Source of the DNA: an uncultured Candidatus Saccharibacteria bacterium
GTDB lineage: Bacteria; Patescibacteriota; Saccharimonadia; Saccharimonadales; Saccharimonadaceae
Length of the DNA: 42,165 bases
Direction: 5' to 3'
Assembly (NCBI GenBank): GCA_964629385.1
Contig: CAZVUR010000001.1
Span: forward strand, 1 to 42,165
This document shows positions 1,013 through 41,436 of this stretch, one piece after another. The notes under the pieces were generated by a model. The model searched no databases. It was not told the DNA's origin and saw nothing but the letters and a program-made list of their open reading frames with translations. Positions within the stretch are counted from its first letter, which is position 1. Each line of letters opens with the position of its first letter. The position numbers and the translations under genes are program-made.

Positions 1013-1087
1013 TGGGGTGTCGCCAAGTGGTAAGGCACATGGTTTTGGTCCATGCATTCGGGGGTTCGAATCCCTCCACCCCAGCCA
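1013..1087 (+). tRNA. tRNA-Gln (anticodon UUG), CCA encoded
   Basis: Hand-folded cloverleaf: acceptor TGGGGTG/CACCCCA with U1:A72, G73-CCA, anticodon loop TTTTGGT, T-loop GGTTCGAATCC. Near-identical in outline to E. coli tRNA-Gln. Confidence 0.9.
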
Positions 1088-4537: not shown

Positions 4538-5488
4538 ATGCATAACCACGACGAACACGAACATCATCACCATCATCATAATACTGACACTGCTGATATT
4601 CCTGCCGACCGTATGGCCGTCTGTCCAGTAACAGGCGACGCAATCGATACAGCAGAAGCTGAAAAGCTTGGACATTTCAGGGACGTGGACGGCCAGCGAA
4701 TGTATTTGTGCTGCGATACATGTGTACAGCTGTTCGATAAAAATCCTGAGCAGTACGTAGATCATCATCTTGGCCACGAACATCACCGGCATATTCCGAC
4801 AACAGGCACACTTCGCTTGAAGGAAAAAGAACACCTGACAGATAATGTTTGGGCGTTTCGTTTCACTACCGACCAGCCGCTATCGTGGACACCGGGTCAA
4901 TTCATTCGTATTGAAATTCCTCATGACAACCCTGACGGTGAAGGCACTAAACGATGGTTCACTATCTCATCAACGCCACATGATGGCTTTATCCAAATCA
5001 CGACTCGTGTGACCGATACTTCGTTTAAGCGAGCATTAGCTGCTCTCGAAGTTGGCGAAAAAGTACAGCTCATCGAGCAGCCAGATGGCGATTTTGTCTG
5101 GAAAGAGAGCGATAAGCCGTTAATATTCGTCGCAGGAGGTATCGGGATTACACCATTTTACAGCATGCTGAGGGCGCAAGGTCATAGCAGGCTACCGGTA
5201 TCTGCTACGCTTATCTACAATGGACGAACAGAGGATTTACCATTTAAGACAGAGTTTGAAGAAGCAAGTAAGCGTCATCCGGAGTTTACCGTGCATTATA
5301 TTATCGGTGAGCCAGTTAGCATCGAAAAGCTGACTGAAATTGTACCAGCCATCAACACATCACAAGTTTATATTTCAGGCCCCGAATCAATGGTTGAGAC
5401 ACTCGGCAAACAGTTAGAAGACAATGGGTTGGCTAGCAATAATCTCCATCAAGATTTCTTTCCTCATTACAACGAAGCGAATTACTAG
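4538..5488 (+). CDS. His-rich/YHS metal-binding domain fused to a ferredoxin-NADP reductase-like flavoprotein
   Basis: N-terminal HEHHHHHH and a YHS-like CPVTGD...YLCCDTCVQLF. C-terminal RWFTISS (RxYS-like FAD motif) and GGIGITP (NAD(P) motif). Confidence 0.7.
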   Translation: MHNHDEHEHHHHHHNTDTADIPADRMAVCPVTGDAIDTAEAEKLGHFRDVDGQRMYLCCDTCVQLFDKNPEQYVDHHLGHEHHRHIPTTGTLRLKEKEHLTDNVWAFRFTTDQPLSWTPGQFIRIEIPHDNPDGEGTKRWFTISSTPHDGFIQITTRVTDTSFKRALAALEVGEKVQLIEQPDGDFVWKESDKPLIFVAGGIGITPFYSMLRAQGHSRLPVSATLIYNGRTEDLPFKTEFEEASKRHPEFTVHYIIGEPVSIEKLTEIVPAINTSQVYISGPESMVETLGKQLEDNGLASNNLHQDFFPHYNEANY

Positions 5489-5527
5489 AAATATGACACA
5501 TGGTGCTACTTACGGTAAAATAAAGAT

Positions 5528-5902
5528 ATGAAGAGAGTCTTCCGTGGAATTGTTTCGGTGTTCATGCTGACAGTGCTTAGCGTACTGTCGTTAGGTGTAC
5601 ACGCAGCCGCAGCACAGACGATGAACATGAAGCACTCGATGGGGGGTGCATCCCATCAGATGAGCTCATCTAGCTGTTTTACTGCATGCACGACAGCAAC
5701 ACTCCACAAGGAGGACATTCTCAAAGATAGTGAAAAGGATGAGGACGATGAGCTCCAGCCTCCGTTTTATGTCCAATTTCAAGCATCGCCCATGTTGGCT
5801 TCGGAGGAAATACATCGTCAAGAGGCAAAGTCTGCCATAGATCGAGAGCCACCTCCTGGCGGCGCACCTGCTTATATAGAGCTGGCTGTTTTTCGCGCCT
5901 GA
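5528..5902 (+). CDS. Secreted Met/His-rich hypothetical protein in the copper island
   Basis: Signal-peptide-like N-terminus (VFMLTVLSVLSLGVHAAAA) followed by QTMNMKHSMGGASHQM. No recognisable family. Confidence 0.45.
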   Translation: MKRVFRGIVSVFMLTVLSVLSLGVHAAAAQTMNMKHSMGGASHQMSSSSCFTACTTATLHKEDILKDSEKDEDDELQPPFYVQFQASPMLASEEIHRQEAKSAIDREPPPGGAPAYIELAVFRA

Positions 5903-7897: not shown

Positions 7898-8302
7898 ATG
7901 CATAACAAGAGTACGATCATATTTTTAGTAATTTTCTTGCTACTACTAGGGGCTATTGGTAGTGGTATTTGGACGGCGCTTAACAATCGTCAAGCTCAGC
8001 CAACTCATGACACGCAAACCTCCGATGAGGCCAAAGTGTTTACGCAAAATGAGGTTGCCGAACATGCGACAAAGGATGATTGCTGGACGATTATTTCTGG
8101 TGACGTATACGATCTGACAAAGTTCATCAACCGCCATCCTGGTGGTAATGAAATACTTCGAGCATGTGGTGTGGACGCTACTGATCTATTTAACTCTCGA
8201 ATGACTACCGCTGGCCAGCCTGTCGGCTCGGGTTCCCCGCACAGTCAAGTGGCACGCGAGCAGTTGGCGCAACTAAAAATTGGAGTATACAGTCAAGAAT
8301 AA
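7898..8302 (+). CDS. Membrane-anchored cytochrome b5-like heme-binding domain protein
   Basis: N-terminal TM helix, then EVAEHATKDDCWTIISGDVYDLTKFINRHPGG, which is the cyt b5 HPGG motif. Confidence 0.75.
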   Translation: MHNKSTIIFLVIFLLLLGAIGSGIWTALNNRQAQPTHDTQTSDEAKVFTQNEVAEHATKDDCWTIISGDVYDLTKFINRHPGGNEILRACGVDATDLFNSRMTTAGQPVGSGSPHSQVAREQLAQLKIGVYSQE

Positions 8303-8467
8303 TCAAGAAACAGTCAGCCTTAGCAGGTTTACGTCATCGTTTGCGGCAAAATAGAATAGTTTTGTGTCGTTATTGATTTTCATTACATATTTAATCTTTT
8401 TTAACAAAGTTTTAAAAATACGTAGTAGAATTTGCAATATTACCAAAAGTGTTACAAATACTCATGA

Positions 8468-8497
8468 GTTCGAAACACGTCCACTAGCCCCATACCA
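8468..8497 (+). repeat. tRNA-3'-end-like core repeat, copy 0 (diverged)
   Basis: GTTCGAAACACGTCCACTAGCCCCATACCA. Compare the tRNA-Gln 3' end GTTCGAATCCCTCCACCCCAGCCA and the other core copies. Confidence 0.6.
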
Positions 8498-8500
8498 TTA

Positions 8501-8532
8501 TTGACAAATAATACAACTTATGCTAATATAAT
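8501..8532 (+). promoter_or_regulatory. Near-consensus sigma70 promoter P1 driving GC-rich cassette 1
   Basis: TTGACA (8501-8506), 17 nt, TAATAT (8524-8529) with TG at 8521-8522. An alternative TATAAT lies at 8527-8532. Confidence 0.65.
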
Positions 8533-8595
8533 ATTGATGTCCTAGCTTTGGAATCCGAGATTTCTCCACTCGACAAGAGGAGGCGAGGAGTTAAC

Positions 8596-9039
8596 ATGAA
8601 CACGCAGACCCTGGTCGAGTTCGACCAGAGCCAGGCCCAGACCTACAACGCGCTCTACGTCGTGAAGCAGGCCGTTCTCGTTCCCGTCCCGGACGGCATC
8701 GAGACGGTCATCAACGCGGAGTGGGGCGAGGAGCAGAAGTTCGTCGGTGCCTGGTACGGCATCTACGTCGACGGCGCGATCGTCTACGGCTCCGCCAAGA
8801 AGGAGTTCGACGACAGCCACGGCAAGACCGACGAGCTCGAGAACGGGTACTTCAAGGACACGCCCATCAGCGCGTACCAGTACCACGGCCCGACCGCACG
8901 AGTCCAGACCGTCCTCGCGGACGGCACCGTCGAGACCGGGAACACCATCTCGGACGGCGACTGGCTCGTGAAGTGGCCGGCCGGCGAGGTCGGAGTCCTG
9001 AAGGACGACAACTTCCGCAAGCGCTACCAGGTCAACTGA
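8596..9039 (+). CDS. GC-rich foreign ORF 1a, hypothetical protein (147 aa)
   Basis: ATG at 8596 lies 5 nt after GAGGAG. G/C-dominated third codon positions. The C-terminal DGDWLVKWPAGEVGVL is weakly reminiscent of small phage-type PGDYG-like proteins (unverified). Confidence 0.7.
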   Translation: MNTQTLVEFDQSQAQTYNALYVVKQAVLVPVPDGIETVINAEWGEEQKFVGAWYGIYVDGAIVYGSAKKEFDDSHGKTDELENGYFKDTPISAYQYHGPTARVQTVLADGTVETGNTISDGDWLVKWPAGEVGVLKDDNFRKRYQVN

Positions 9040-9044
9040 TCCAC

Positions 9045-9185
9045 ATGAGGCGCAGGCTGAGGAGGATCAAGCACGGGATCTTCGGACACCCCCGCGAGGA
9101 CATGATCTTCGGCGACATGGTCGAAGGCAACACCTGCACGTCGTGTGGGTGGAACTTCAAGCGGGCCGACATCACCGTGGGCTGA
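9045..9185 (+). CDS. GC-rich foreign small ORF 1b (46 aa, CxxC)
   Basis: ATG lies 5 nt after the ORF 1a stop. Same G/C-rich third-position bias. Sequence MRRRLRRIKHGIFGHPREDMIFGDMVEGNTCTSCGWNFKRADITVG. Below the 60-aa track cutoff as a separate ORF. Confidence 0.5.
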   Translation: MRRRLRRIKHGIFGHPREDMIFGDMVEGNTCTSCGWNFKRADITVG

Positions 9186-9194
9186 CAACAACCC

Positions 9195-9298
9195 CAACTA
9201 CACCCTCAGGAGAGGAGAGCACCCGAGCATGGGAGCCCCTCGAATGAGGGTGCTTCCATATCTAAATGTTCCTGAAACACATCCACCAGCCCCAGCCA
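9195..9298 (+). repeat. Cassette 3' module M, copy A (GC-rich hairpin half plus AT-rich linker plus core copy 1 at 9268-9298)
   Basis: CAACTACACCCTCA...GGGAGCCCCTCGAATGAGGGTGCTTCC-ATATCTAAAT-GTTCCTGAAACACATCCACCAGCCCCAGCCA. Aligns with copies at 10073 and 10627. Confidence 0.8.
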
Positions 9299-9363
9299 AG
9301 CTTAAGTATTATAAATAGGCCTTTTGGGTCTATTTTGTTATTATCGTTTTAGTGAAAAATTTA

Positions 9364-9495
9364 ATGAACAAAAAGATCGCAAATCAATCCAAGCGTAATA
9401 TTCTTTTCCTATACATATTATTTTTTGTTGGAGTTCTGATTTTTCTTTACGCAATTTTTGTGACATTGCGATACGTTCTTACTGAATCTTGGTAG
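9364..9495 (+). CDS. Small hydrophobic peptide (43 aa), native AT-rich composition
   Basis: MNKKIANQSKRNILFLYILFFVGVLIFLYAIFVTLRYVLTESW. One TM helix. The stop lies 5 nt before core copy 2. No clear RBS was seen. Confidence 0.35.
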   Translation: MNKKIANQSKRNILFLYILFFVGVLIFLYAIFVTLRYVLTESW

Positions 9496-9500
9496 TATTC

Positions 9501-9530
9501 TTCCTGAAACACATCCACTAGCCCCAGCCA
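9501..9530 (+). repeat. tRNA-3'-end-like core repeat, copy 2
   Basis: TTCCTGAAACACATCCACTAGCCCCAGCCA. It is followed by AAGACGCTTATGGTTTAAAT, which matches the trailer after copy 5 (10923-10941). Confidence 0.8.
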
Positions 9531-9578
9531 AGACGCTTATGGTTTAAATACTTCATTCGGAAGTCTATTTGTTTATGC

Positions 9579-9608
9579 TTGCAATTCCTTATTATTAAAC
9601 GGTAATCT
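9579..9608 (+). promoter_or_regulatory. Sigma70-like promoter P2 driving GC-rich cassette 2
   Basis: TTGCAA (9579-9584), 18 nt, TAATCT (9603-9608). The composition jump at ~9617 coincides with the predicted +1. Confidence 0.5.
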
Positions 9609-9645
9609 ATATTTACACGTTCCACACCGAGCTAAGGAGAGTGCG

Positions 9646-10089
9646 ATGGACGTGAGTATCAAACCAGCAGATAAGCAGGCGCGTGAGGCAGTCATCAAGG
9701 CGCGCGAAGACAAGGAGGCTGCTCGGGTTGCGCGCAAAGAGAAGCGCAAGAAGCGGAAGGCCGAGAAGCGAGACCCGGTCGTTGCCAAACGGCTCAGGCG
9801 GCGGATCGAGAAAGAAGTTCTCGCTGATCTTCTCACCGAGAAGCGGTGCTACCTCAATGCTCAGCCTTCGACCGGCCAGTATGTGATCGACACGCGAATT
9901 CGCTACGGCTGGACGCTGAAGCGGAAGTGGCGTTACGACAAAGACACCGTCGAGCGAATCTTCCTGGAAGTGCTCGCAAGTCACAACGGTTTCGAGCACA
10001 AGGCCGACTACCGTTGTCAGGGCCCGTGGTGGTGTGTCCGAATCGATGTTCAGTACACCCTGCTGGACCACTCAAGTACACCCTCATGA
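9646..10089 (+). CDS. GC-rich foreign ORF 2, hypothetical (147 aa): Lys/Arg/Glu-rich N-terminal half, Trp/Cys-containing C-terminal domain
   Basis: ATG lies 6 nt after AAGGAGAG. G/C-rich third positions. The last codons and the TGA lie inside module M copy B. Confidence 0.7.
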   Translation: MDVSIKPADKQAREAVIKAREDKEAARVARKEKRKKRKAEKRDPVVAKRLRRRIEKEVLADLLTEKRCYLNAQPSTGQYVIDTRIRYGWTLKRKWRYDKDTVERIFLEVLASHNGFEHKADYRCQGPWWCVRIDVQYTLLDHSSTPS

Positions 10090-10172
10090 GAGGAGACGCG
10101 ACCAAGTTGGGAGCCCCTCGAATGAGGGTGCTTCCATATCTAAATGTTCCTGAAACACATCCACTATCCCCA
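10073..10172 (+). repeat. Cassette 3' module M, copy B (core copy 3 at 10146-10172, truncated before GCCA)
   Basis: Identical to copy A over GGGAGCCCCTCGAATGAGGGTGCTTCCATATCTAAATGTTCCTGAAACACATCCAC. Runs directly into promoter P3. Confidence 0.8.
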
Positions 10173-10188
10173 ATTGTGGGTTAGATGA

Positions 10189-10217
10189 TTGACATAATAT
10201 TATTTATTTGTTATAAT
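10189..10217 (+). promoter_or_regulatory. Consensus sigma70 promoter P3 driving GC-rich cassette 3
   Basis: TTGACA (10189-10194), 17 nt, TATAAT (10212-10217) with TG at 10209-10210. Confidence 0.75.
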
Positions 10218-10267
10218 ATATTTAAGACGTGACTTTCACGTCCGAACCGAGTGAGAAAGGCATTCAG

Positions 10268-10615
10268 ATGCCGAAGTACGCGTTCAACAGCAAGAAGATT
10301 GTCGACCTCGTCGACGAGGACGAGGACTTGGTCCGGATCCTGGACCAGAAGACGGTTCGGGCTGACAACGTCCAGATCAAGGGCTACCCGACCAAGATGG
10401 ACGGCCATCTCTACCCCGTCAACTTCGTGCTCACCACTTCGAGCTACTACTACGAGGTCTCCATCTACCTGGAGACCGCCGAGATCCAGAAGTGCGACAT
10501 CTCCAGCTCCAGCGTGATCGAGTCCGACGTGTTCACTGCGCTGGACGACTTCACCGAGAAGCTGATGGCAATCCTCGAGGAGGTCGAGTCCGCCGAGAAG
10601 ATCGCCGCCGTCTGA
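10268..10615 (+). CDS. GC-rich foreign ORF 3, acidic hypothetical protein (115 aa)
   Basis: ATG at 10268 lies after GAGAAAGG. 19 of the first 20 codons end in G/C (hand count). The track ORF begins at an upstream GTG (10229) that lacks an RBS. Confidence 0.7.
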   Translation: MPKYAFNSKKIVDLVDEDEDLVRILDQKTVRADNVQIKGYPTKMDGHLYPVNFVLTTSSYYYEVSIYLETAEIQKCDISSSSVIESDVFTALDDFTEKLMAILEEVESAEKIAAV

Positions 10616-10626
10616 ATCAGCTCGCT

Positions 10627-10733
10627 CAACTACACCCTCATGAAAGGACAAGCGCCTGCAACAATGGAGCTCCTCGATTGAGGGTGCTTCCATTTGTAAA
10701 TTCTTCCTGAAACACATCCACTAACCCCAGCCA
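10627..10733 (+). repeat. Cassette 3' module M, copy C (core copy 4 at 10704-10733)
   Basis: CAACTACACCCTCATGAAAGGA...GGAGCTCCTCGATTGAGGGTGCTTCC-ATTTGTAAATTC-TTCCTGAAACACATCCACTAACCCCAGCCA. The hairpin arms are preserved through C-to-T (G:U) changes. Confidence 0.8.
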
Positions 10734-10734
10734 T

Positions 10735-10768
10735 AGAAAAAGACTGAGCATCTGCTCGGTCTTTTTCT
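10735..10768. terminator. Strong bidirectional-looking hairpin terminator
   Basis: AGAAAAAGACTGAGC-atct-GCTCGGTCTTTTTCT, a ~15 bp stem flanked by an A-run and a T-run. Confidence 0.65.
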
Positions 10769-10769
10769 A

Positions 10770-10904
10770 TAACTCGGGCCGGGACTACGAGCCCCCGATG
10801 CTTTTGCAAAGCAAAAGTCGGGGAGTTCGGCGTAGCGCAGCGATGATAAGAAAGCACCGAAGGTATTTTCTTATCAAGCAAGCGGAGGAGGCCTCATGGC
10901 AGAT
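10770..10904 (+). other. GC-rich structured non-coding segment abutting the tRNA-Gln 3'-end repeat (probable element-side arm of an att junction)
   Basis: No credible ORF. Hairpins CCCCGA..GCTTTTGC-aaa-GCAAAAG..TCGGGG and GATAAGAAA-12 nt-TTTCTTATC. Confidence 0.4.
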
Positions 10905-10922
10905 ATCCCTCCACCCCAGCCA
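10905..10922 (+). repeat. Exact 18-nt direct repeat of the tRNA-Gln 3' end (core copy 5, putative attR)
   Basis: ATCCCTCCACCCCAGCCA is identical to 1070-1087. Confidence 0.85.
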
Positions 10923-10936
10923 AGATGCTTATGTTT

Positions 10937-10962
10937 AAAATGACGAGAAATCGTCATTTTTT
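10937..10962 (+). terminator. Intrinsic terminator, likely the displaced original tRNA trailer terminator
   Basis: AAAATGACGA-gaaa-TCGTCATTTT followed by TT. Confidence 0.6.
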
Positions 10963-10971
10963 ATTGCTAAA

Positions 10972-11388
10972 ATGATAAGTATGAAATCAGTCGCTAAGCT
11001 TTTAATCAAGAATGGTAATGAGTTTTTAATGATGTACAGGAGTGATCATCCAACCTTTGGTATTGACCCTGATCTACCTGGCGGAACAGTGGAAGGAAGC
11101 GAGACCGTACTTCAAACCATGCTGAGAGAAGTCTACGAGGAGATCGGTGTAGTAGTTGAATCAAGTAAAGCTAGTGAAATATTCTCAGGTAACGACTATT
11201 CGGCACATGGGACTTACTATTCTCTGTTTATTACAGAGGTCGAGGACAAACCAGAGATACGCATGAGCTGGGAGCACTCATCGTATGAGTGGCTCAAGGA
11301 GTCGGAGTTTATAGAAAAGGCGGCTAGCGCAAAAGATACCTATATGCACATGGTTAGTGAGGTTCTAGCGTCGTATTCAATGTCATAA
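10972..11388 (+). CDS. NUDIX hydrolase
   Basis: Nudix box GGTVEGSETVLQTMLREVYEEIGV. Native composition. The start may be the ATG at 10981. Confidence 0.8.
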   Translation: MISMKSVAKLLIKNGNEFLMMYRSDHPTFGIDPDLPGGTVEGSETVLQTMLREVYEEIGVVVESSKASEIFSGNDYSAHGTYYSLFITEVEDKPEIRMSWEHSSYEWLKESEFIEKAASAKDTYMHMVSEVLASYSMS

Positions 11389-11390
11389 TA

Positions 11391-11420
11391 TTCCTGAAAC
11401 ACATCCACTAGTTCCAGCCA
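11391..11420 (+). repeat. tRNA-3'-end-like core repeat, copy 6
   Basis: TTCCTGAAACACATCCACTAGTTCCAGCCA begins 2 nt after the NUDIX stop codon. Confidence 0.75.
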
Positions 11421-23300: not shown

Positions 23301-23649
23301 AAGCAAGTGGCAGGGCAAGACTGATAGCGAAAAACTAAAACTGCACAAGTACCGCCAACAACTATTATTCTATAAACTTATGTGCGAGAACTCCCGTGAT
23401 TATTCAAGCTACACTGTAACAAGTGGGGTTCTGCAATTTGTTGAGCCGAGTCCTAGTGGCGACATCCACGCACTTAGCCTGGATCTCGACTCAAGCGAGC
23501 TTGATCGTATGAGTAAACTCATCAATGCGGTTTGGCAAAAAATTATGAATTGCGATTTTCCTGACACGAGCGAATACGATGCCAGCTATAAGGGCGTTTT
23601 GGCATTCGAAGAAGACTTACTAAACGACTACGACGGCAAGTCTGACTAG
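20356..23649 (+). CDS. UvrD/PcrA/AddA-type helicase with a C-terminal PD-(D/E)xK nuclease domain
   Basis: GPGTGKT, DEFQDTN, VGDDDQAIYSFQGA, NYRS, and a C-terminal LDLVD...VTDYKTG nuclease motif. Confidence 0.85.
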   Translation: MDFETRYKKLNARQKQAVDTIDGPLMVVAGPGTGKTELLSMRAANILKSTDTAPENILCLTFTESGATAMRQRLSEIIGADAYKVAIHTFHSFGSEIINQNGEYFYQGANFRPASDLHAYELLRSIFDTLDFSNPLAGRMNDEYTHLSDTLTVISELKKSGLTNEELLQVLDSNESVLDMVERDIAGVFSSRVSSKTAAQLSPIATRLASMPTHAMPPGIAPLANVLALSIAHAVDDAADSDSTKPITTWKNRYLEKNEKGELVFKDRRRTAKLRALSFIYYQYLVGMQESELYDFDDMVLRVVHAMEVFPDLRFNLQEKYLYIMVDEFQDTNLAQARILHNLTATPTGDTPNIMVVGDDDQAIYSFQGAEIGNILNFRDRYEDSTIITLTDNYRSAEAILTKASSVIRQGNERLERYLEEVDKTLTAHHSSKRADVRLTEYQHVEDERYGIAAAIKAQLEAGVDPSSIAVLARRHHELVSLLPYFAEQGITVNYERRDNVLDSHAVEQLLLLSRIVCYLHGGDISQADALLPQLLSHPAWGYDTPTLWKLSLAAYKNRGSWLEQMATVPEFIPLHTWLLETSRLVATDPAEHLIDVLTGVPDETSNAAYTSPLYDYFFGGDNHKNKLDDYIVHLEALRSIRAALREYRPGERLLLSDFIGFIDLHTHVGQAITSLRVRSDTMPAAINLLTAHKSKGLEYDHVYVVGAIDSSWGEQVRSRSRLIGYPDNLPIRPSGDSLDERLRLFFVAMTRARTTLSISYSLTDANGKNTLPASFLVNEQWQPIKAITPNGVPHLAKQLQQEWYSPYVALEQPHMKDLLAHTLESYKLSVTHLTSFLDVTRGGPQYFLLNNLLRFPKSKHPSAQYGSAIHEALQRAHLHVAATGMKKPLEDILQDFEQILGKYVMNEHDYKIYLQRGTTSLSTFLAAQYESFSEHQKVELNFANQQSRVGDAVLTGSLDLVDMDDKAKTMIVTDYKTGAPSSKWQGKTDSEKLKLHKYRQQLLFYKLMCENSRDYSSYTVTSGVLQFVEPSPSGDIHALSLDLDSSELDRMSKLINAVWQKIMNCDFPDTSEYDASYKGVLAFEEDLLNDYDGKSD

Positions 23650-23652
23650 CTA

Positions 23653-23681
23653 TTGACACATTGTTTATTTAGCGGTAAAAT
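23653..23681 (+). promoter_or_regulatory. Sigma70 promoter P4 driving GC-rich unit 4
   Basis: TTGACA (23653-23658), 17 nt, TAAAAT (23676-23681). It starts 4 nt after the helicase stop codon. Confidence 0.7.
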
Positions 23682-23772
23682 ACTAGTGATTTTGAGAGTT
23701 GAGGCTCGTATTCTGTGCTGTACAATTTGAGGTAAAGCGTAGTATACGCGCCTCCTGTCAAAATCGAACTTT

Positions 23773-24316
23773 GACAGGATGGTGCCTTAGTGCGAACGGG
23801 CAGGGATCCGAGGACTCGTAACATTGTTCTCGCAGAAGATTCATTCTCTGTCCGTTCGACCAAACCTCCGGGCGTGGTGGGGCCCGAGACCCATTGCGCC
23901 CGGAGCCAAGTGCCCAGGCGGGCACGGTGCAAAACGAGGAGGGAGCAGCCGTCACACGCTGACAATTCTCGATGGAGGAACACCGTGTCCGCCTGTGGCC
24001 CATGCGAATGGCTACATGGCAGTGCTCCTTGTATCCGGGACTTCCGGAGCAAGCGTTCAATATACGACACCTTGAGAGGAGGTGATCGCATGGCAACCAC
24101 CGAGGAGACCAGGCAGGCCATCATGGCCGTCTCCAACGGCCAGGCCAGCAGGGAGCAGCAGGAGATCGCAAGGCGCGCGGCTCAGCAGGCTGGCTCCATG
24201 GGCAACAGTGCCCGGGAGGCCTTCAAGGGCAAGAAGTGAGCCAGCGAGGGCGATCATCTTCGCAGTGGGGGCGGGCTTACCCAGCCGCCCCCACCCGAGA
24301 CTGGTACCATCCTGTC
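23773..24316 (+). other. GC-rich cargo of unit 4, enclosed by a 14-bp long-range helix
   Basis: GACAGGATGGTGCC (23773-23786) is complementary to GGTACCATCCTGTC (24303-24316) with one G:U. It contains a ~300-nt structured leader plus a small ORF. Confidence 0.6.
24090..24239 (+). CDS. GC-rich foreign small ORF 4 (49 aa)
   Basis: ATG lies 5-6 nt after GAGAGGAGGTG. Sequence MATTEETRQAIMAVSNGQASREQQEIARRAAQQAGSMGNSAREAFKGKK with G/C-rich third positions. The in-frame upstream stretch from 23790 looks non-coding. Confidence 0.55.
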   Translation: MATTEETRQAIMAVSNGQASREQQEIARRAAQQAGSMGNSAREAFKGKK

Positions 24317-24365
24317 CGTCTCACATTACACATGAATTATTCGTGTGCAGCGTGAGACGTTTTTA
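24317..24365 (+). terminator. Intrinsic terminator of unit 4
   Basis: CGTCTCAC...GTGAGACG followed by TTTTT. The left arm GTCTCACATT is shared with the unit 5 terminator. Confidence 0.7.
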
Positions 24366-24394
24366 TTGACGATTCAAACTAAAAGTGATAAAAT
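24366..24394 (+). promoter_or_regulatory. Sigma70 promoter P5 driving GC-rich unit 5
   Basis: TTGACG (24366-24371), 17 nt, TAAAAT (24389-24394) with TG at 24386-24387. Confidence 0.7.
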
Positions 24395-24650
24395 CTATTT
24401 TACTTGGTCGAGTAGGCAACGAACATATCGAGTGATATGTTTTGAACGCGGTTTGTTCGTTGTCTATTCCTAAGTGTTTTTTAACAGGAATAGCGTACAA
24501 GAATTCACCGGGGTATCCCCGTTGCCTTGGTGAATGGGGTATCATTCTTCGCAGCGGCTTACGCAGTCTGCTCCGATAGTGGTCTGCAATGGCTTCTAGA
24601 GTGGAGAACGATACAGGGTGCTGAGTCCGGCTCGGCAAAGCACCCACCCG

Positions 24651-24723
24651 GGGGCGTTGGCGCAGATGGTAGCGCGCTCACCTAATACGTGAGAGGTCGC
24701 AGGTTCGAGCCCTGTGCGTCCCA
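24651..24723 (+). tRNA. GC-rich tRNA with anticodon AAU (formally Ile), CC but not CCA encoded
   Basis: Hand-folded canonical cloverleaf: GGGGCGT/GCGTCCC acceptor (two G:U), U8, GCGC/GCGC D-stem with G18G19, CTCAC/GTGAG anticodon stem, loop CTAATAC, T-loop TTCGAGC, discriminator A. Confidence 0.7.
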
Positions 24724-24795
24724 CCGGAACAAGCAGGCCGCAAAAGGAGTCGGCCGTCGTGCTTTCCTCGCTCGGTATGCACACTTGTTCCATCC

Positions 24796-24834
24796 GGGAC
24801 CGGAGGCTTCGCACATACCGTTGCCTCCGGTCCC
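24796..24834 (+). other. 12-bp perfect GC hairpin downstream of the GC-rich tRNA (high-GC-style terminator or processing hairpin)
   Basis: GGGACCGGAGGC-15 nt-GCCTCCGGTCCC with no T-run. Confidence 0.5.
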
Positions 24835-24985
24835 GCCCCACCCAAAGCTTCTCATTTATCGGCGCCAACCACCTGTTTAGTGGCGCGACGATAACTAGGA
24901 GGGGAGACCCCGGGCCCTTCTCTGTTTGCCGCTGCGCGGGAACGGTCCGGGGAACTTCCCTTGCTCTAAGACGCTATTCCTGTGT

Positions 24986-25036
24986 CTCACATTGTTTAAG
25001 AGTATCTCGTAGACAATGTGAGGCGTTTTATTTTTG
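24986..25036 (+). terminator. Intrinsic terminator of unit 5
   Basis: CTCACATTGT-17 nt-ACAATGTGAG followed by GCGTTTTATTTTT. Confidence 0.7.
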
Positions 25037-25094
25037 TTCAAAATATGGTATTATGAAGTCTCGATACATCATAAAAAATCAAAAGGAGACTTAC

Positions 25095-25295
25095 ATGGAG
25101 ATAGTTAACCTTCCACGTGCTATTGACCCTGAAACAGGACTGCCAGAAGTTGTAGGTAATGGCCGTGTTGCCGTTATCAAGCCGGGTGAAATGGTAGTAT
25201 CGCGTGTTGTTGAACTACCTGAGCCATACACAGACGACGGTAAACCCGATATGTTAAGCAAGCTTGTTGCCACCGGCAGACTCCATAATAATTAG
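25095..25295 (+). CDS. Small hypothetical protein (66 aa), native composition
   Basis: ATG lies 6 nt after AAAGGAG. The long track ORF 24714-25295 is an artefactual upstream extension through GC-rich RNA-like sequence. Confidence 0.5.
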
Positions 25296-25302
25296 AAGCC
25301 CT

Positions 25303-33936: not shown

Positions 33937-36837
33937 CTAATAAATTAGGAAGCCGGAACCAGTGCCACTCGTTGTTGCGGGTACCTGCAAAATAGGCCAA
34001 GGTGTGGGGTAAGTGGGGTTACCTTCGCCTGAAATCTGATAATAATCATTTTTACCCCAACAGTAGCCCCTGTTATCGGAGGCAATAGCACATGTGGTGT
34101 ACCTGCTTGCAGAAATACTCTTATACGTACCGCCTGCAGGCACGGCACCTTGGTTAACAAGTACGGCAGTACGACGCGTTGTTACCGTATTATCTCCAAG
34201 TTGGTTTACGTCATTTAAACCCCAACAATAGGCCTTATCTTCAGAACTGATTGTGCAGGTGTAGCTTATACCTAAAGTAATGCTTTTATAGGTGGCACCA
34301 ACAGGCATAGCACCACGCACAACGGCTACAGGTATGGTGCGTGTTGTGGTCGTGTTATCACCTAGCTGGCCGCTACCATTATTACCCCAACAATACGCTT
34401 TATCATTGGAACCAATAGCGCAGGTATGATTATTGCCAGTTGCGATGCTCTTGAAGGTCACGCCGGCGGGTATAGCGCCTTGCACAACTGCCACTGGGGC
34501 AGGATTAGTGTTTAAATAGGTAGTGTTGCCACCTTCGCCAAAGGTATTGTCGCCCCAGCAGTAGGCTTTGTTGTCGGAGCCAATTGCGCAGGTATTAATA
34601 CCGCCTGCAGAAATACTTTTGAAGGTTACACCGGCTGGCATGTCACCTTGGGCAACGGCTACAGGTGTCAGTTCTGGTGGCGCAAATATACTGCCATTAT
34701 TTCCTAGTTGTCCATTACTGTTATTACCCCAACAATAGGCTTTGTCGTTTGAGCCAATAGCGCAGGTATGACTACCCCCTGCAGAAATACTTTTGAATGT
34801 TACACCGGCTGGCATGGCACCTTGCGCAACGGCGGTAGGCGTAGGCTGGCTAGTGGTTGTGTTATCTCCCAGGACCCCGTAGCTGTTATATCCCCAGCAA
34901 TACGCTTTGTCGTTAGAGCCAATGCCGCAGGTATGATTACCGGTAGCAGACGTGCTAACTGACTTAAACGTCACGCCGGCCGGCATGGCGCCTTGCACAA
35001 CCGGGAATGGAGTGGCTGACGGACCTGAAACACCAGAGGTAGATATGCCGTTTCCAAGATAGCCGCCTTGATTACTACCCCAACAATAGGCTTTATTATC
35101 CGAAACTGTGGCACATGATTGAGTACTGCCCGCAGAAATACTAGTGAGCGTTACACTAGTTGGAATAACACCAGTAGGAACCGTAACTGGAACTGATCGA
35201 CTAGGCGTCATAGCACCATCGCCGAGCTGCGCGCTATCGTCTGCACCCCAGCAATAAATGTTAGAATCACTACCAAGAACGCAAGTATGGCTATAGCCAG
35301 CCTTAATGCTATCAAATGTTACTCCCGCGGGTATGCTTCCTTGGCTAGTAGCTACTGGAGTTAGGCGCTGCGTTTGAGTGCTGTCGCCTAGCTGCCCGTA
35401 AGTATTATCGCCCCAGCAATATAGCATGTTATTGGAGCCAATGCCGCAACTATGTAACTGGCCAGCCGCGATACCCTTAAAGGTAGAACCGGCTGGCATG
35501 GCACCTTGAGCAACTGCAACAGGAGTGAGGCGTTGGGTAGTCGTATTATCGCCCAGCTGCCCAGAAGAATTACTACCCCAGCAATAGGCTTTGTCGTTAG
35601 ATCCAATACCGCAGGTATGATACGAATTTGTGGTAATACTTTTGAAGGTAGTGCCGGCTGGCATGGCTCCTTGAGCGACCGCAACGGGGGTATAGGCCGT
35701 TCCAGTGCTATTATTTCCGAGCTGCCCATTACTGTTAAAACCCCAGCAGTAGGCTTTGTCGTTAGAGCCAATACCGCAGACATAGCCGTTTTCTGCAGCA
35801 GCTATACTTTTGAACGTAGAACCAATTGGCATGGCTCCCCTAGAAACAGCTACGGGTGTATAGCTGGCAGTTGTTGTATTATTACCAAACTGCGCATAGG
35901 TATTATCGCCCCAGCAATAGGCTTTGTCGTTTGAGCCAAGTGCGCAGGTAAAGCTGCTACCAACCGAGATACTTTTGAACGTTACACCGGCTGGGATGGC
36001 ACCTTGGGCGACAGCCACTGGCGTACTGCTGGTAGTAGTAGTGCCATCACCCAGCTGCCCAGAAGAATTACTACCCCAGCAATAGGCTTTGTTGTCGGAG
36101 CCAATAAGACAAGCATGTGAACCACCTATTGAAATGCTGCTAGCCGTTACGTCAGCTGGCATTGCGCCCCTAGAAACAGCAACAGGGATAAGCGATTTAG
36201 CTATGGTGTTGTCAAATTTAGCCGCACCCCAACAATAAACGTTATTTGTTAAATCGAGTGCACAAGTACCATAGTAACCTGCGCTTAATGACCCGGCTTT
36301 GAATGTCATCCAAGCCGAACTCGAACCCGAAATACTTATGCTAACTTTAACAGACGAATTCGTTTGCATTACCACGTCACCGCTCGTCGTTCGCACCTGC
36401 CGTACGATGCCTTGTGAATTAAAATCTGTCGGCGTGCCGCCGCTATCACTGACTATTCCAACACTAAACGCTGTTCTATAATTTCCACTCTTTAATACAT
36501 AGCATGCTACATCAGTGCTTGATGAAGGACAGCTGATGTTTTCAGTCCCCGTACAATCGGTGTTAGGTTTGAGGGGTTTTGCATCCGTCCATGTAATGCT
36601 TCCACCGTTCTTTTTCATACACGCATTAGCCATAGCAATTCCAGACTTAGCAGCGGAGCGGCCGATTTGGTCAACGTATTGGTTGCGAATACCAGCAGAG
36701 ATGGAGCTAACGCCAGTCAGGGCAGCGAGCAGTACGACCATCATGACGACGGAGGCAACAAGAACAGTGGGTAAAGCAAAGCCTTCTGACTTTGTTTTAC
36801 CCTTATAACGATGTGCTACTTGTCTTGTCCAACCCAT
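33937..36837 (-). CDS. Pilin-like (prepilin-type N-terminus) surface protein with ~14 RCC1-like beta-propeller repeats (966 aa)
   Basis: N-terminal KSEGFALPTVLVASVVMMVVLLAAL resembles a class III signal/minor pilin lacking E5. There are 14 YCWG motifs spaced ~52-56 aa apart (GSNDKAYCWGxNxxGQLG...TPVAV). Confidence 0.75.
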   Translation of the reverse strand: MGWTRQVAHRYKGKTKSEGFALPTVLVASVVMMVVLLAALTGVSSISAGIRNQYVDQIGRSAAKSGIAMANACMKKNGGSITWTDAKPLKPNTDCTGTENISCPSSSTDVACYVLKSGNYRTAFSVGIVSDSGGTPTDFNSQGIVRQVRTTSGDVVMQTNSSVKVSISISGSSSAWMTFKAGSLSAGYYGTCALDLTNNVYCWGAAKFDNTIAKSLIPVAVSRGAMPADVTASSISIGGSHACLIGSDNKAYCWGSNSSGQLGDGTTTTSSTPVAVAQGAIPAGVTFKSISVGSSFTCALGSNDKAYCWGDNTYAQFGNNTTTASYTPVAVSRGAMPIGSTFKSIAAAENGYVCGIGSNDKAYCWGFNSNGQLGNNSTGTAYTPVAVAQGAMPAGTTFKSITTNSYHTCGIGSNDKAYCWGSNSSGQLGDNTTTQRLTPVAVAQGAMPAGSTFKGIAAGQLHSCGIGSNNMLYCWGDNTYGQLGDSTQTQRLTPVATSQGSIPAGVTFDSIKAGYSHTCVLGSDSNIYCWGADDSAQLGDGAMTPSRSVPVTVPTGVIPTSVTLTSISAGSTQSCATVSDNKAYCWGSNQGGYLGNGISTSGVSGPSATPFPVVQGAMPAGVTFKSVSTSATGNHTCGIGSNDKAYCWGYNSYGVLGDNTTTSQPTPTAVAQGAMPAGVTFKSISAGGSHTCAIGSNDKAYCWGNNSNGQLGNNGSIFAPPELTPVAVAQGDMPAGVTFKSISAGGINTCAIGSDNKAYCWGDNTFGEGGNTTYLNTNPAPVAVVQGAIPAGVTFKSIATGNNHTCAIGSNDKAYCWGNNGSGQLGDNTTTTRTIPVAVVRGAMPVGATYKSITLGISYTCTISSEDKAYCWGLNDVNQLGDNTVTTRRTAVLVNQGAVPAGGTYKSISASRYTTCAIASDNRGYCWGKNDYYQISGEGNPTYPTPWPILQVPATTSGTGSGFLIY

Positions 36838-40749: not shown

Positions 40750-41001
40750 ATGAACCGCATCGTCAACGTCGCGACCGTCGTGGTCGGAGGCATCGTCGCC
40801 ATCAAGATCGCGAAGGAGGTCAAGGACTTCATCGTGTTCGACGCCGGCTCGACCGAGAACCGCCGCTACCGGAAGTTCTACAAGGAGATCTCCCGGGCGG
40901 CCAACAAGATGAAGAACGTGTCGGTGGAAGAGCTGATGGAGCTGCTGCGTGGTGAGGAGCTCACGCCCCAGGTGGCCGGCTCCGACCGCAACGCCATGTA
41001 G
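40750..41001 (+). CDS. GC-rich foreign ORF 6 (83 aa), N-terminal TM helix
   Basis: ATG lies 6 nt after AAGGGAG. Sequence MNRIVNVATVVVGGIVAIKIAKEV... with G/C-rich third positions. The upstream ATG at 40702 lies in a leader hairpin without an RBS. Confidence 0.65.
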   Translation: MNRIVNVATVVVGGIVAIKIAKEVKDFIVFDAGSTENRRYRKFYKEISRAANKMKNVSVEELMELLRGEELTPQVAGSDRNAM

Positions 41002-41042
41002 TCCGCACCTGTCCGACCTGATGATTGCCCGCGACCCATCAT

Positions 41043-41114
41043 GCCGCCGAAGACAGCCACCGAAGTCAAGCCAACAAGCTCCTTCAGGTCCGCTTCGGCG
41101 GCTGTTTTCGTTTT
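41043..41114 (+). terminator. Terminator of unit 6
   Basis: GCCGCCGAAG (41043-41052) pairs with CTTCGGCGGC (41093-41102). An inner CCGC-ttcg-GCGG hairpin is present, followed by TGTTTTCGTTTT. Confidence 0.65.
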
Positions 41115-41127
41115 ATATAAAATATTG

Positions 41128-41156
41128 TTGACAGCATACATAGGACGCAGTATCAT
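41128..41156 (+). promoter_or_regulatory. Sigma70 promoter P7 driving unit 7
   Basis: TTGACA (41128-41133), 17 nt, TATCAT (41151-41156). Confidence 0.65.
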
Positions 41157-41162
41157 TACTCT

Positions 41163-41436
41163 TAATCTGTAACGGACTCTGGGAGCGCTCGGGTGCTTCA
41201 TATACCCCGGTATGGATGCCGAGAAATCGGTTCAAATACGACATTTTCTGACCACATACGACCCGGCGTCGTATCTCCGTCTCAGAATAGACAGAGCAGA
41301 ATCGTCGTTTAGGCAGGCTAGAGAGAGGAAGGCCGCGCGGTTTTCCTGCAAATACCATACGATGCCTGCCTAAGCCCCCGCGTTCCAGCCAGACCCCTCC
41401 AAAAGGTCCGGCTGGTGCGGGGGCTCGTCAATTTCT
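41163..41436 (+). ncRNA. Candidate structured non-coding RNA (unit 7), class unknown
   Basis: No ORF with an RBS. Stems include TTAGGCAGGC...GCCTGCCTAA and ACGAC-ccggc-GTCGT, with a terminal GCCCCCGC...GCGGGGGC hairpin. The 5' part resembles module M (GGGAGC..GGGTGCTTCATATA). Confidence 0.35.

Follow-up and report, generated by a model that had tools for sequence, protein, structure and literature searches.

Covarying closing helices enclose small-protein and tRNA cargo in predicted transcription units between addA and dus of Saccharibacteria

In bacterial ribosomal RNA (rRNA) operons, helices formed by leader and spacer sequences flank the 16S and 23S rRNAs and are cut by RNase III. Long-lived bacterial messenger RNAs (mRNAs), for example that with the ompA 5′ untranslated region (UTR), have stabiliser hairpins at the 5′ terminus and terminator hairpins at the 3′ end. 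The type I toxin mRNAs hok and aapA3 show coupled covariations and a long-distance interaction between their 5′ and 3′ ends (PMC6733600); for three covarying segments of such mRNAs that article cites Gultyaev 1997 and Nagel 1999. Here we describe two tandem units, termed units 4 and 5, in a stretch of 42,165 nucleotides (nt) of a Saccharibacteria chromosome, which is referred to as the window. The units lie in the spacer between addA, which encodes an AddA-like UvrD/PD-(D/E)XK helicase-nuclease, and dus, which is followed by the F-ATPase operon. In each of them a long-range helix (the closing helix, or clamp) encloses a GC-rich body, and the two bodies differ, as the original prediction for this DNA had described: unit 4 contains a leader and a 49-amino-acid (aa) open reading frame (ORF), c49, and unit 5 structured RNA and a transfer RNA (tRNA). 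Our preferred reading, to which we assign a probability of roughly 60%, is that both are resident, independently transcribed RNA genes of a Saccharibacteria-specific family in the addA-dus spacer and that the clamp acts in RNA.

The region 23400-25300 was read directly, promoters were located with a consensus scan and inverted repeats with a repeat finder. The promoters, local hairpins, long-range helices and terminators that had been proposed were all recovered at their positions. The features are listed here with the Shine-Dalgarno sequence abbreviated SD, minimum free energy MFE, base pairs bp and the GC content at third codon positions GC3.

23653..23681, plus strand: promoter of unit 4, TTGACA-17-TAAAAT, 11 of 12 consensus matches
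23689..23764, plus strand: 5′-end transcript hairpin of unit 4 (MFE and centroid folds, inverted repeat); its 3′ strand holds segment X
23753..23779, plus strand: local 'competitor' hairpin X:Y of unit 4, TCCTGTCAAA/TTTGACAGGA, an alternative pairing of 10 bp (P = 0.01)
23773..23786, plus strand: 5′ arm of the unit 4 closing helix, GACAGGATGGTGCC (repeat finder, fold, covariation, shuffles)
23787..24073, plus strand: GC-rich structured leader of unit 4, 287 nt, the 5′ UTR of the small ORF
24074..24239, plus strand: strong SD GAGAGGAGGTGA and the 49-aa ORF c49 (ORF 24090-24239), GC3 0.88
24265..24294, plus strand: hairpin after the c49 stop codon, 10-bp stem almost all G-C, no U-tract (sequence, fold)
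24303..24316, plus strand: 3′ arm of the unit 4 closing helix, GGTACCATCCTGTC (repeat finder, fold, covariation)
24317..24364, plus strand: terminator of unit 4, CGTCTCAC...GTGAGACG + UUUUU; its hairpin (24317-24359) adjoins the 3′ arm directly
24366..24394, plus strand: promoter of unit 5, TTGACG-17-TAAAAT with an extended -10 TG, 10 of 12 consensus matches
24402..24475, plus strand: 5′-end transcript hairpin of unit 5 (fold, inverted repeat), containing X = CTATTCCT at 24464-24471
24464-24493, plus strand: local hairpin of unit 5, CTATTCCT/AGGAATAG (sequence)
24484..24496, plus strand: 5′ arm of the unit 5 closing helix, ACAGGAATAGCGT (repeat finder, fold, covariation, shuffles)
24497..24650, plus strand: GC-rich structured RNA of unit 5 upstream of the tRNA, no SD-led ORF
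24651..24725, plus strand: tRNA module, anticodon AAT (Ile), no CCA encoded (Rfam 55.7 bits, ARAGORN)
24726..24970, plus strand: GC-rich structured RNA of unit 5 downstream of the tRNA, z = -4.8
24971..24983, plus strand: 3′ arm of the unit 5 closing helix, ACGCTATTCCTGT (repeat finder, fold, covariation)
24984..25035, plus strand: terminator of unit 5, GTCTCACATTG...CAATGTGAGGC + U-tract; hairpin 24984-25024

Both promoters are the top matches of the consensus scan. On the minus strand the scan, a weak test for antisense RNA, found no promoter-like site in 23500-25200. The helix of unit 4 (23773-23786 with 24303-24316) is 14 nt long and 93% complementary, with one G:U as the sole exception; that of unit 5 (24484-24496 with 24971-24983) is 13 nt long and 100% complementary. 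The two leader hairpins and the two terminator hairpins were likewise picked up by the repeat finder. These helices exceed chance. When the first 130 nt and the last 110 nt of each transcript were shuffled 1000 times, the best stem had a mean length of 7.8 bp, and 14 bp were reached in 0/1000 shuffles for unit 4 and 13 bp in 1/1000 for unit 5. Whole transcripts were folded from the predicted start to the U-tract and compared with dinucleotide shuffles. The closing helix is present in the MFE and centroid folds of both, with z = -12.1 for unit 4 and z = -10.9 for unit 5, and the 5′-end hairpin, the clamp and the terminator hairpin are all predicted to converge on one junction. The enclosed bodies have a GC content of 63% (unit 4) and 60% (unit 5), compared with 46.8% for the window. 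The leader of unit 4 folds with z = -5.4 on the plus strand versus -2.1 on the minus strand and has no match in Rfam.

The region is not an assembly artefact, a worry voiced earlier, because units 4 and 5 are 100% identical in the independent assembly L001 and the identical 49-aa gene is found on five further contigs from other samples. The string CCTGTnnTCTCACATT had been proposed to be shared by the 3′ ends of the two units. Parts of this motif are found in both, but the match is not exact and the spacing differs (CCTGT-CCG-TCTCACATT in unit 4, CCTGT-G-TCTCACATT in unit 5). Pairwise similarity between the units is not above that of shuffles, and the idea that they are recent duplicates was therefore rejected; their common descent is hinted at solely by the short shared motifs ATCATTCTTCGCAG and CACCCACCCG.

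About 35 fetched loci share the gene order addA-spacer-dus; in most of them a 162-aa gene lies upstream on the minus strand and atpC downstream. The closest relatives of the window's Dus are encoded in metagenome-assembled genomes of uncultured Saccharibacteria (Patescibacteria) and are at most 78% identical. Four loci have an 'empty' spacer of 6-53 bp, and elsewhere the spacer reaches 0.4-1.8 kb; most of the longer ones have a GC-rich core and AT-rich edges. More than 20 related species have the same design in their addA-dus spacer. It consists of a TTGAC[AG]-17-TAnnAT promoter, a 5′-end hairpin, the closing helix, a GC-rich body, the 3′ arm and a terminator hairpin, in this order. The consensus promoter and leader were found in 17 of the 19 units tested, and most leaders fold into a 5′-end hairpin. 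The closing helix has 12-16 bp with the consensus GACAGGAATAGTGC. It starts shortly after a T-rich stretch (commonly CTTT) that ends the leader and stops where the conserved terminator hairpin begins, which the 3′ arm directly adjoins. Of the 32 spacers examined, 15 have this helix as their best long-range inverted repeat; its position is constant, but its sequence varies. The arms include the following, with others besides.

L010 and L018: GACAGGAATAGTGC(A)
L011: GACAGGCACAGTGA
L020 and L037: GACAGAGATAGTGA
L023: GGCAGGAATGGTATT
L026: GACAGGAATAATGCAT
L027: GACGACGGATAGCA
L034: GACGGGAATGAT
L043: GCAGAGATATTCT

Further instances of the helix were found in L022, L161, L213 and L295-L302. On a 945-kb Saccharibacteria contig (L161, reverse strand 4824-5713) two tandem clamped units lie between addA and dus, like in the window; their arms are GACAGGAGTATTGCG and GACAGGAACAGCA, and each contains a Cys-rich small ORF. 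A search for the scaffold with the 14-mer CCTGTCCGTCTCAC in metagenome and viral collections used a pattern that was too short and returned about 200 loci, nearly all of them chance matches; L161 and L213 alone were real, and L221 lay inside a coding region.

Covariation was computed on an ungapped alignment of 17 arm pairs. Changes on both sides occur at 14 of the 16 pairs, across 63 cells. The cells pair in 88.7% of cases, compared with 62% in shuffles and 29-45% with slid partners. The observed percentage is inflated since each arm pair had been chosen as the best repeat of its spacer; homologous placement of the arms formed no part of that selection. The observed score was reached in 0/500 shuffles. 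Elsewhere, in about 1 Mb of flanking Saccharibacteria sequence, inverted repeats of at least 14 bp are rare, and the GACAG type is absent among them. The adjoining terminator hairpin is homologous in 16 units; 12 of its 16 pairs covary, and G:U pairs on the plus strand are numerous in it. In L011, L020, L034 and the second unit of L161 this conserved 'terminator' hairpin has no U-tract, so that something other than termination may explain its conservation.

Units with orthologous c49 genes differ in their arms, which end in ...AATAGTGC in L012, L213 and L298-L302, in ...CACAGTGA in L011 and L295-L297, and in ...ATGGTGCC in the window. Each arm is complementary to its own partner, which indicates that the pairing itself is under selection, and this is the strongest single argument for it. 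In L020 and L037 the arms are identical though the unit bodies are just 70% identical. The covariation shows that the end of the leader and the segment before the terminator are kept complementary by selection in a predicted plus-strand transcription unit. The scaffold is thus conserved in relatives and its helix covaries, in line with the original prediction; neither of the refuting outcomes it had named, a lack of any related scaffold or of covariation, was seen.

The units might be ordinary small-gene and tRNA transcription units whose long-range complementarity arose by chance or through local sequence duplication. The absence of significant pairwise similarity between the window units would fit, as would the finding that each locus has about one or two inverted repeats of 12-13 bp by chance. 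However, the shuffles gave P <= 0.001 for each unit, and the helix recurs at the same position in more than 20 species with compensatory changes. We regard this explanation as extremely improbable.

A local 5′ hairpin that competes with the closing helix had also been proposed. In unit 4 it is present in the sequence as CCTGTCAAA/TTTGACAGG (23754-23778). The upstream segment X does track the 5′ arm Y across species: cognate Watson-Crick stems have a mean of 5.9 bp versus 4.5 bp for non-cognate ones (P < 2e-4), and the observed mean was reached in 0/5000 permutations. The X:Y stems are short, and few individual ones exceed shuffles. The predicted ground state instead uses the upstream strand of each local hairpin for the longer 5′-end hairpin (23689-23764; 24402-24475). 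The competitor pairing is real at the level of the family yet weak, and thermodynamically it is predicted to be pre-empted.

Five internal pairs of the helices are not Watson-Crick, namely four plus-strand G:U pairs and one A.C, and each internal G:U is followed by one or two more pairs. Together with the fold energies, the plus-strand G:U pairs suggest that the pairing acts in plus-strand RNA. Terminator and leader show strand-specific signals, which shows the predicted structure to be specific to this strand. The orientation of ORF or tRNA relative to promoter and terminator is identical in every species and assembly examined. All this agrees with the proposal of two tandem promoter-to-terminator units of common design in which the helix encloses the GC-rich body at the RNA level.

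The original prediction had offered a second reading, in which 7-8 bp direct repeats mark an insertion scar in the DNA. Repeats of this kind arise automatically when one segment, here arm Y, can pair with two others, the upstream segment X and the 3′ arm Z. Foreign GC-rich DNA with terminal inverted repeats would here have been inserted in a pre-existing hairpin of an AT-rich expression scaffold. Such a cassette would agree with the switch in composition, which falls within roughly 15-20 nt of the arms, with the nearly pure Watson-Crick pairing of the arms and with X and Z being direct repeats. It would also agree with bodies that differ between units and species and with ORF codons that are GC-rich, unlike those of resident genes. 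Yet more than 25 loci or species agree in both locus and orientation. Outside the arms no target-site duplication is seen (ACTTT vs CGTCT, with the flanks reading ...ACTTT/GACAGG and CCTGTC/CGTCTC...). GACAG-type repeats are found nowhere but in the addA-dus spacer when the 42-kb window and the 6-kb flanks of about 60 loci are searched, and no recombinase, integrase, transposase or invertase was found among the larger ORFs of the window. The internal G:U pairs lie on the plus strand, orthologous c49 bodies are enclosed by different yet complementary arms, no donor was found in phage and viral collections, and all protein relatives come from Saccharibacteria contexts. A foreign cassette with an insertion scar is therefore very unlikely.

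Inverted repeats of 12-16 bp that flank a few hundred bp are also known from miniature inverted-repeat transposable elements (MITEs), other elements derived from insertion sequences, and invertons. The units differ from these in their single fixed locus and orientation, in the lack of target-site duplications and of a recombinase, in the compensatory evolution of arms among orthologues and in the plus-strand G:U pairs. Were the units phase-variable invertons, recombination at the 13-16 bp repeats would turn the body around with respect to a fixed outside promoter and so switch c49 or the tRNA on and off. The perfect 12-16 bp inverted repeats around 266-854 bp, the near absence of G:U and the position of the promoter outside the flanked segment are what an inverton would show. 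Nevertheless, this is highly improbable, because every unit ORF or tRNA module read and every c49 assembly examined is co-oriented with promoter and terminator, and no invertase lies nearby among the larger ORFs of the window. The distal arm halves covary freely, which a recombinase site does not need, pairing resumes beyond the internal G:U pairs, and the X-Y covariation would be left unexplained. An integron gene cassette (a promoterless ORF with attC, plus an integrase and attI nearby) was rejected because each unit has its own promoter and terminator and no integrase was found among the larger ORFs of the window.

The c49 family comprises about 35-50 related clusters in collections of 5.8 and 1.84 billion proteins, with about 50 in the latter; nearly all members have 46-113 aa and are unnamed. 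Every c49 genomic context fetched was addA-c49-dus in Saccharibacteria. Changes at third codon positions are about twice as frequent as at first and second positions, and c49 therefore evolves as a coding gene under selection. The protein has many K, R, E, Q and A residues and no hydrophobic stretch; AlphaFold (AF2) predicts a soluble three-helix bundle with a predicted local distance difference test score (pLDDT) of 88.8. Pfam, NCBIfam, a PDB sequence search and Foldseek against PDB gave no match. A hairpin with a GC-rich stem and no U-tract follows each c49 ORF inspected (window, L012, L090, L213). It precedes the 3′ arm and an AT-type terminator, like a GC-style gene end nested in an AT-style one. 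Most other addA-dus spacers examined contain an SD-led ORF of 40-82 aa, with or without a tRNA module. These ORFs are either hydrophilic and c49-like, often with a K/R-Q-A-G-S-x-G motif, or encode Cys-rich CxxC proteins. Apart from the ORF and tRNA modules no similarity was found among the spacer bodies.

A tRNA or tRNA-like module is present in about a quarter of the units. The one in the window (24651-24725) forms a cloverleaf with the invariant residues of the D-arm and T-arm, as judged by Rfam (55.7 bits), ARAGORN and alignment. Its anticodon AAT is neither the standard bacterial isoleucine GAU nor modified CAU, and it differs from the housekeeping tRNA-Gln of the window (1013-1087) in that the latter encodes CCA. 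Odd tRNA modules are found in L010 (178-286), L012 (5065-5183), L087 (3036-3112) and the window (24651-24725); two of these have anticodon-loop insertions of 38-45 nt and one an 8-nt loop. Rfam was run at the gathering threshold on the window and 11 related loci, and as an E-value scan on 23600-25100 and 8300-11000. Beyond tRNA it returned none of the known families (tmRNA, RNase P, 6S, SRP, GOLLD, ROOL, Y-RNA-like, riboswitches), and ARAGORN found no tmRNA. L012 has a tRNA-like module and c49 in one clamped unit, and L087 has both in one unit without a clamp. The pair in the window therefore looks like a split or duplicated version, and the tandem arrangement looks like the outcome of a duplication or fission of a single unit with tRNA and c49.

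The likeness to type I toxin mRNAs (hok/Sok of plasmid R1, aapA/IsoA of Helicobacter) is considerable: an ORF of about 50 aa in a compact, very stable transcript, pairing between 5′ and 3′ ends that closes the full-length transcript, an upstream segment able to pair with the same 5′ element, and covariation among these three segments. In a strict type I toxin-antitoxin system c49 would be the toxin, and its mRNA would be kept inert by the 5′-3′ interaction and a metastable 5′ hairpin, as in hok/Sok and aapA/IsoA. The ORF of about 50 aa in a highly structured transcript of about 680 nt with a 5′-3′ closing helix would be as expected for such a system, and the covariation of the upstream segment with the same arm is parallel to that of hok and aapA3 (PMC6733600). 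In contrast to a membrane toxin, however, c49 is hydrophilic and predicted to be a soluble bundle, and no antisense promoter was detected by the consensus scan. The unit helix contains no anti-SD sequence. The SD lies outside the helix, at a distance of 25-300 nt, and its predicted occlusion is not consistent between species. In unit 5 and several relatives the clamp is present without an ORF, and the cargo of clamped units also includes tRNAs, in some of them as tRNA alone. We consider a strict toxin-antitoxin system very unlikely.

The enclosed cargo had been taken for interchangeable foreign inserts, an impression which is due to the GC-rich codon usage and the switch in composition at the arms. 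A blastn search of both unit bodies against phages gave nothing or generic tRNA matches to actinophage tRNAs. Searches against phages by tblastn with c49 and with the 147-aa ORF of unit 1 gave nothing useful, and scans of IMG/VR with these two proteins found no relatives. No phage, viral or other source outside Saccharibacteria turned up in these searches, and the idea of foreign inserts was abandoned because c49 belongs to a locus-specific Saccharibacteria family without relatives in phage and viral collections. Judged by this distribution, the cargo is resident and vertically inherited, not foreign.

The codon usage of the cargo nevertheless stands apart. The GC3 of c49 (0.88) compares with 0.32-0.51 for ordinary genes and 0.35 for atpE, and the distribution in the window is bimodal, with five small ORFs at 0.70-0.95. 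The codons preferred in the small ORFs are GAG, CAG, AAG, ATC, GTC and CTC. In 19 of 21 loci the GC3 of the small ORF exceeds that of dus and in the other two it is equal, with a mean difference of +0.23. The 147-aa ORF (8596-9039, GC3 0.95) has about 30 related clusters, of which the named ones are from Saccharibacteria; two relatives fetched from other loci are still GC3-rich (L292 0.84, L293 0.70). A further outlier is a 107-aa ORF at 40878-41201 on the minus strand with a GC3 of 0.69. This puzzle of codon usage and composition leaves room for a host-directed reading, in which the clamped, end-protected RNAs or their products would be made for use outside the producing cell, as transferred 'RNA effectors' suited to the translation apparatus of a high-GC actinobacterial host. 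Features that can be cited for it are ORFs with GC3 of up to 0.9 across Saccharibacteria genomes of about 35-55% GC, strong ribosome-binding sites of the GGAGG type, GC-only hairpins behind the stop codon and the tRNA or tRNA-like modules. Its probability is very low.

With the units read as resident RNA genes whose clamp acts in RNA, the following course can be proposed. The transcript would start at a consensus promoter of the sigma-70 type and open with a stable 5′-end hairpin. The closing helix of 12-16 bp would then join the end of the leader to the segment that directly abuts the terminator hairpin. The GC-rich body would thereby form a closed loop, and helices would cover both ends of the transcript. 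The cargo would be a small-protein ORF, a tRNA or tRNA-like module, or both. The clamp might give a compact, exonuclease-resistant and long-lived transcript; or it might be a double-stranded processing stalk of the RNase III type which releases the body, as for rRNA precursors. The upstream segment X would offer an alternative pairing, as in the folding pathway of type I toxin mRNAs, and could delay or gate closure.

Compared with rRNA operons, the units share the order of promoter, leader, 5′ arm, GC-richer structured RNA (here including tRNA) and 3′ arm, and a helix formed by sequences that flank a functional RNA within one primary transcript. They differ in that their arms have just 12-16 bp, that they enclose a small mRNA and/or a tRNA together with structured RNA, and that the 3′ arm abuts the terminator; any cleavage of the units is hypothetical. 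With ompA-type mRNAs they share a hairpin at or near +1 and another one at the 3′ end, which shield from end-dependent RNases, but the units add a third helix that ties both ends together, so that three helices meet at a junction. The literature searched on GC-rich genes, small proteins and noncoding RNAs of Saccharibacteria contained nothing relevant. The architecture is apparently a lineage-specific variant of the known principle of a 5′-3′ closing helix, undescribed in the literature searched and without a match in Rfam.

Several points weigh against this reading, in addition to the inflated percentage of paired cells. Every function ascribed to the clamp is something that we infer. A helix of 13-16 bp is shorter than the canonical substrate of RNase III. 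The helix is almost purely Watson-Crick, unlike the adjoining terminator, and this would also fit a requirement for identity at the DNA level. In five species the SD is predicted to be unpaired with probabilities between 0.02 and 0.50; a translational lock is therefore not evident, and a lock by SD occlusion was rejected as inconsistent across species. About 10 relatives retain the small ORF or the tRNA but show no closing helix (for example L087), which makes the clamp an accessory feature of a sub-lineage that can be dispensed with. The closed-transcript model does not account for the Actinomycetota-like codon usage of the ORFs, with GC3 of up to 0.9.

The units represent a conserved RNA architecture of Saccharibacteria that is backed by covariation; it occurs at one fixed place in the chromosome and is linked to a family of proteins of about 50 residues. 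They offer a tractable case of 5′-3′ end pairing outside toxin mRNAs and rRNA operons. Seemingly foreign cargo that is vertically inherited matters for annotation and for screens for horizontal gene transfer in genomes of the Candidate Phyla Radiation (CPR). The resident, host-like high-GC codon usage in mid-GC epibiont genomes could bear on the interaction between epibiont and Actinomycetota.

Between unit 5 and dus lies a 66-aa ORF (25095-25295) which is conserved, has a normal composition and its own promoter; relatives are found in L010 (769-990), L012 (5810-6000) and L090 (2666-2851). The longest dus ORF (25264-) overlaps it, and the true dus start is therefore probably further downstream.

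Three more GC-rich cassettes are located at 8470-11420 of the window, with ORFs at 8596-9039, 9045-9185, 9646-10089 and 10268-10615 (GC3 0.70-0.95). Each has its own TTGACA promoter and is followed by a shared 3′ module of about 110 nt that consists of CTACACCCTCATGAGAGGA, the hairpin GGGAGCCCCTCGAATGAGGGTGCTTCC and TTCCTGAAACACATCCACTAGCCCCAGCC. No closing helix was found in the GC-rich cassettes at 8490-10760, and their scaffold is therefore distinct from that of units 4 and 5. A repeat of 21-23 nt, GAAACACATCCACTAGCCCCA, bounds the cassettes six times (8472, 9274, 9506, 10152, 10709, 11396). Its end resembles the 3′ end of tRNA-Gln (1070-1087), of which positions 10905-10930 are an 88% copy, and the repeats look like reiterated att-like or tRNA-3′-like boundaries. 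At 33937-36837 on the minus strand the window encodes a 966-aa RCC1-repeat protein; a 165-nt period recurs about 13 times in its gene. Duplicated heavy-metal-binding (HMBD) motifs (2304-2369 and 2457-2522) are found at the N-terminus of a P-type ATPase, and its neighbours with DUF305 and YHS domains suggest a metal-handling cluster.

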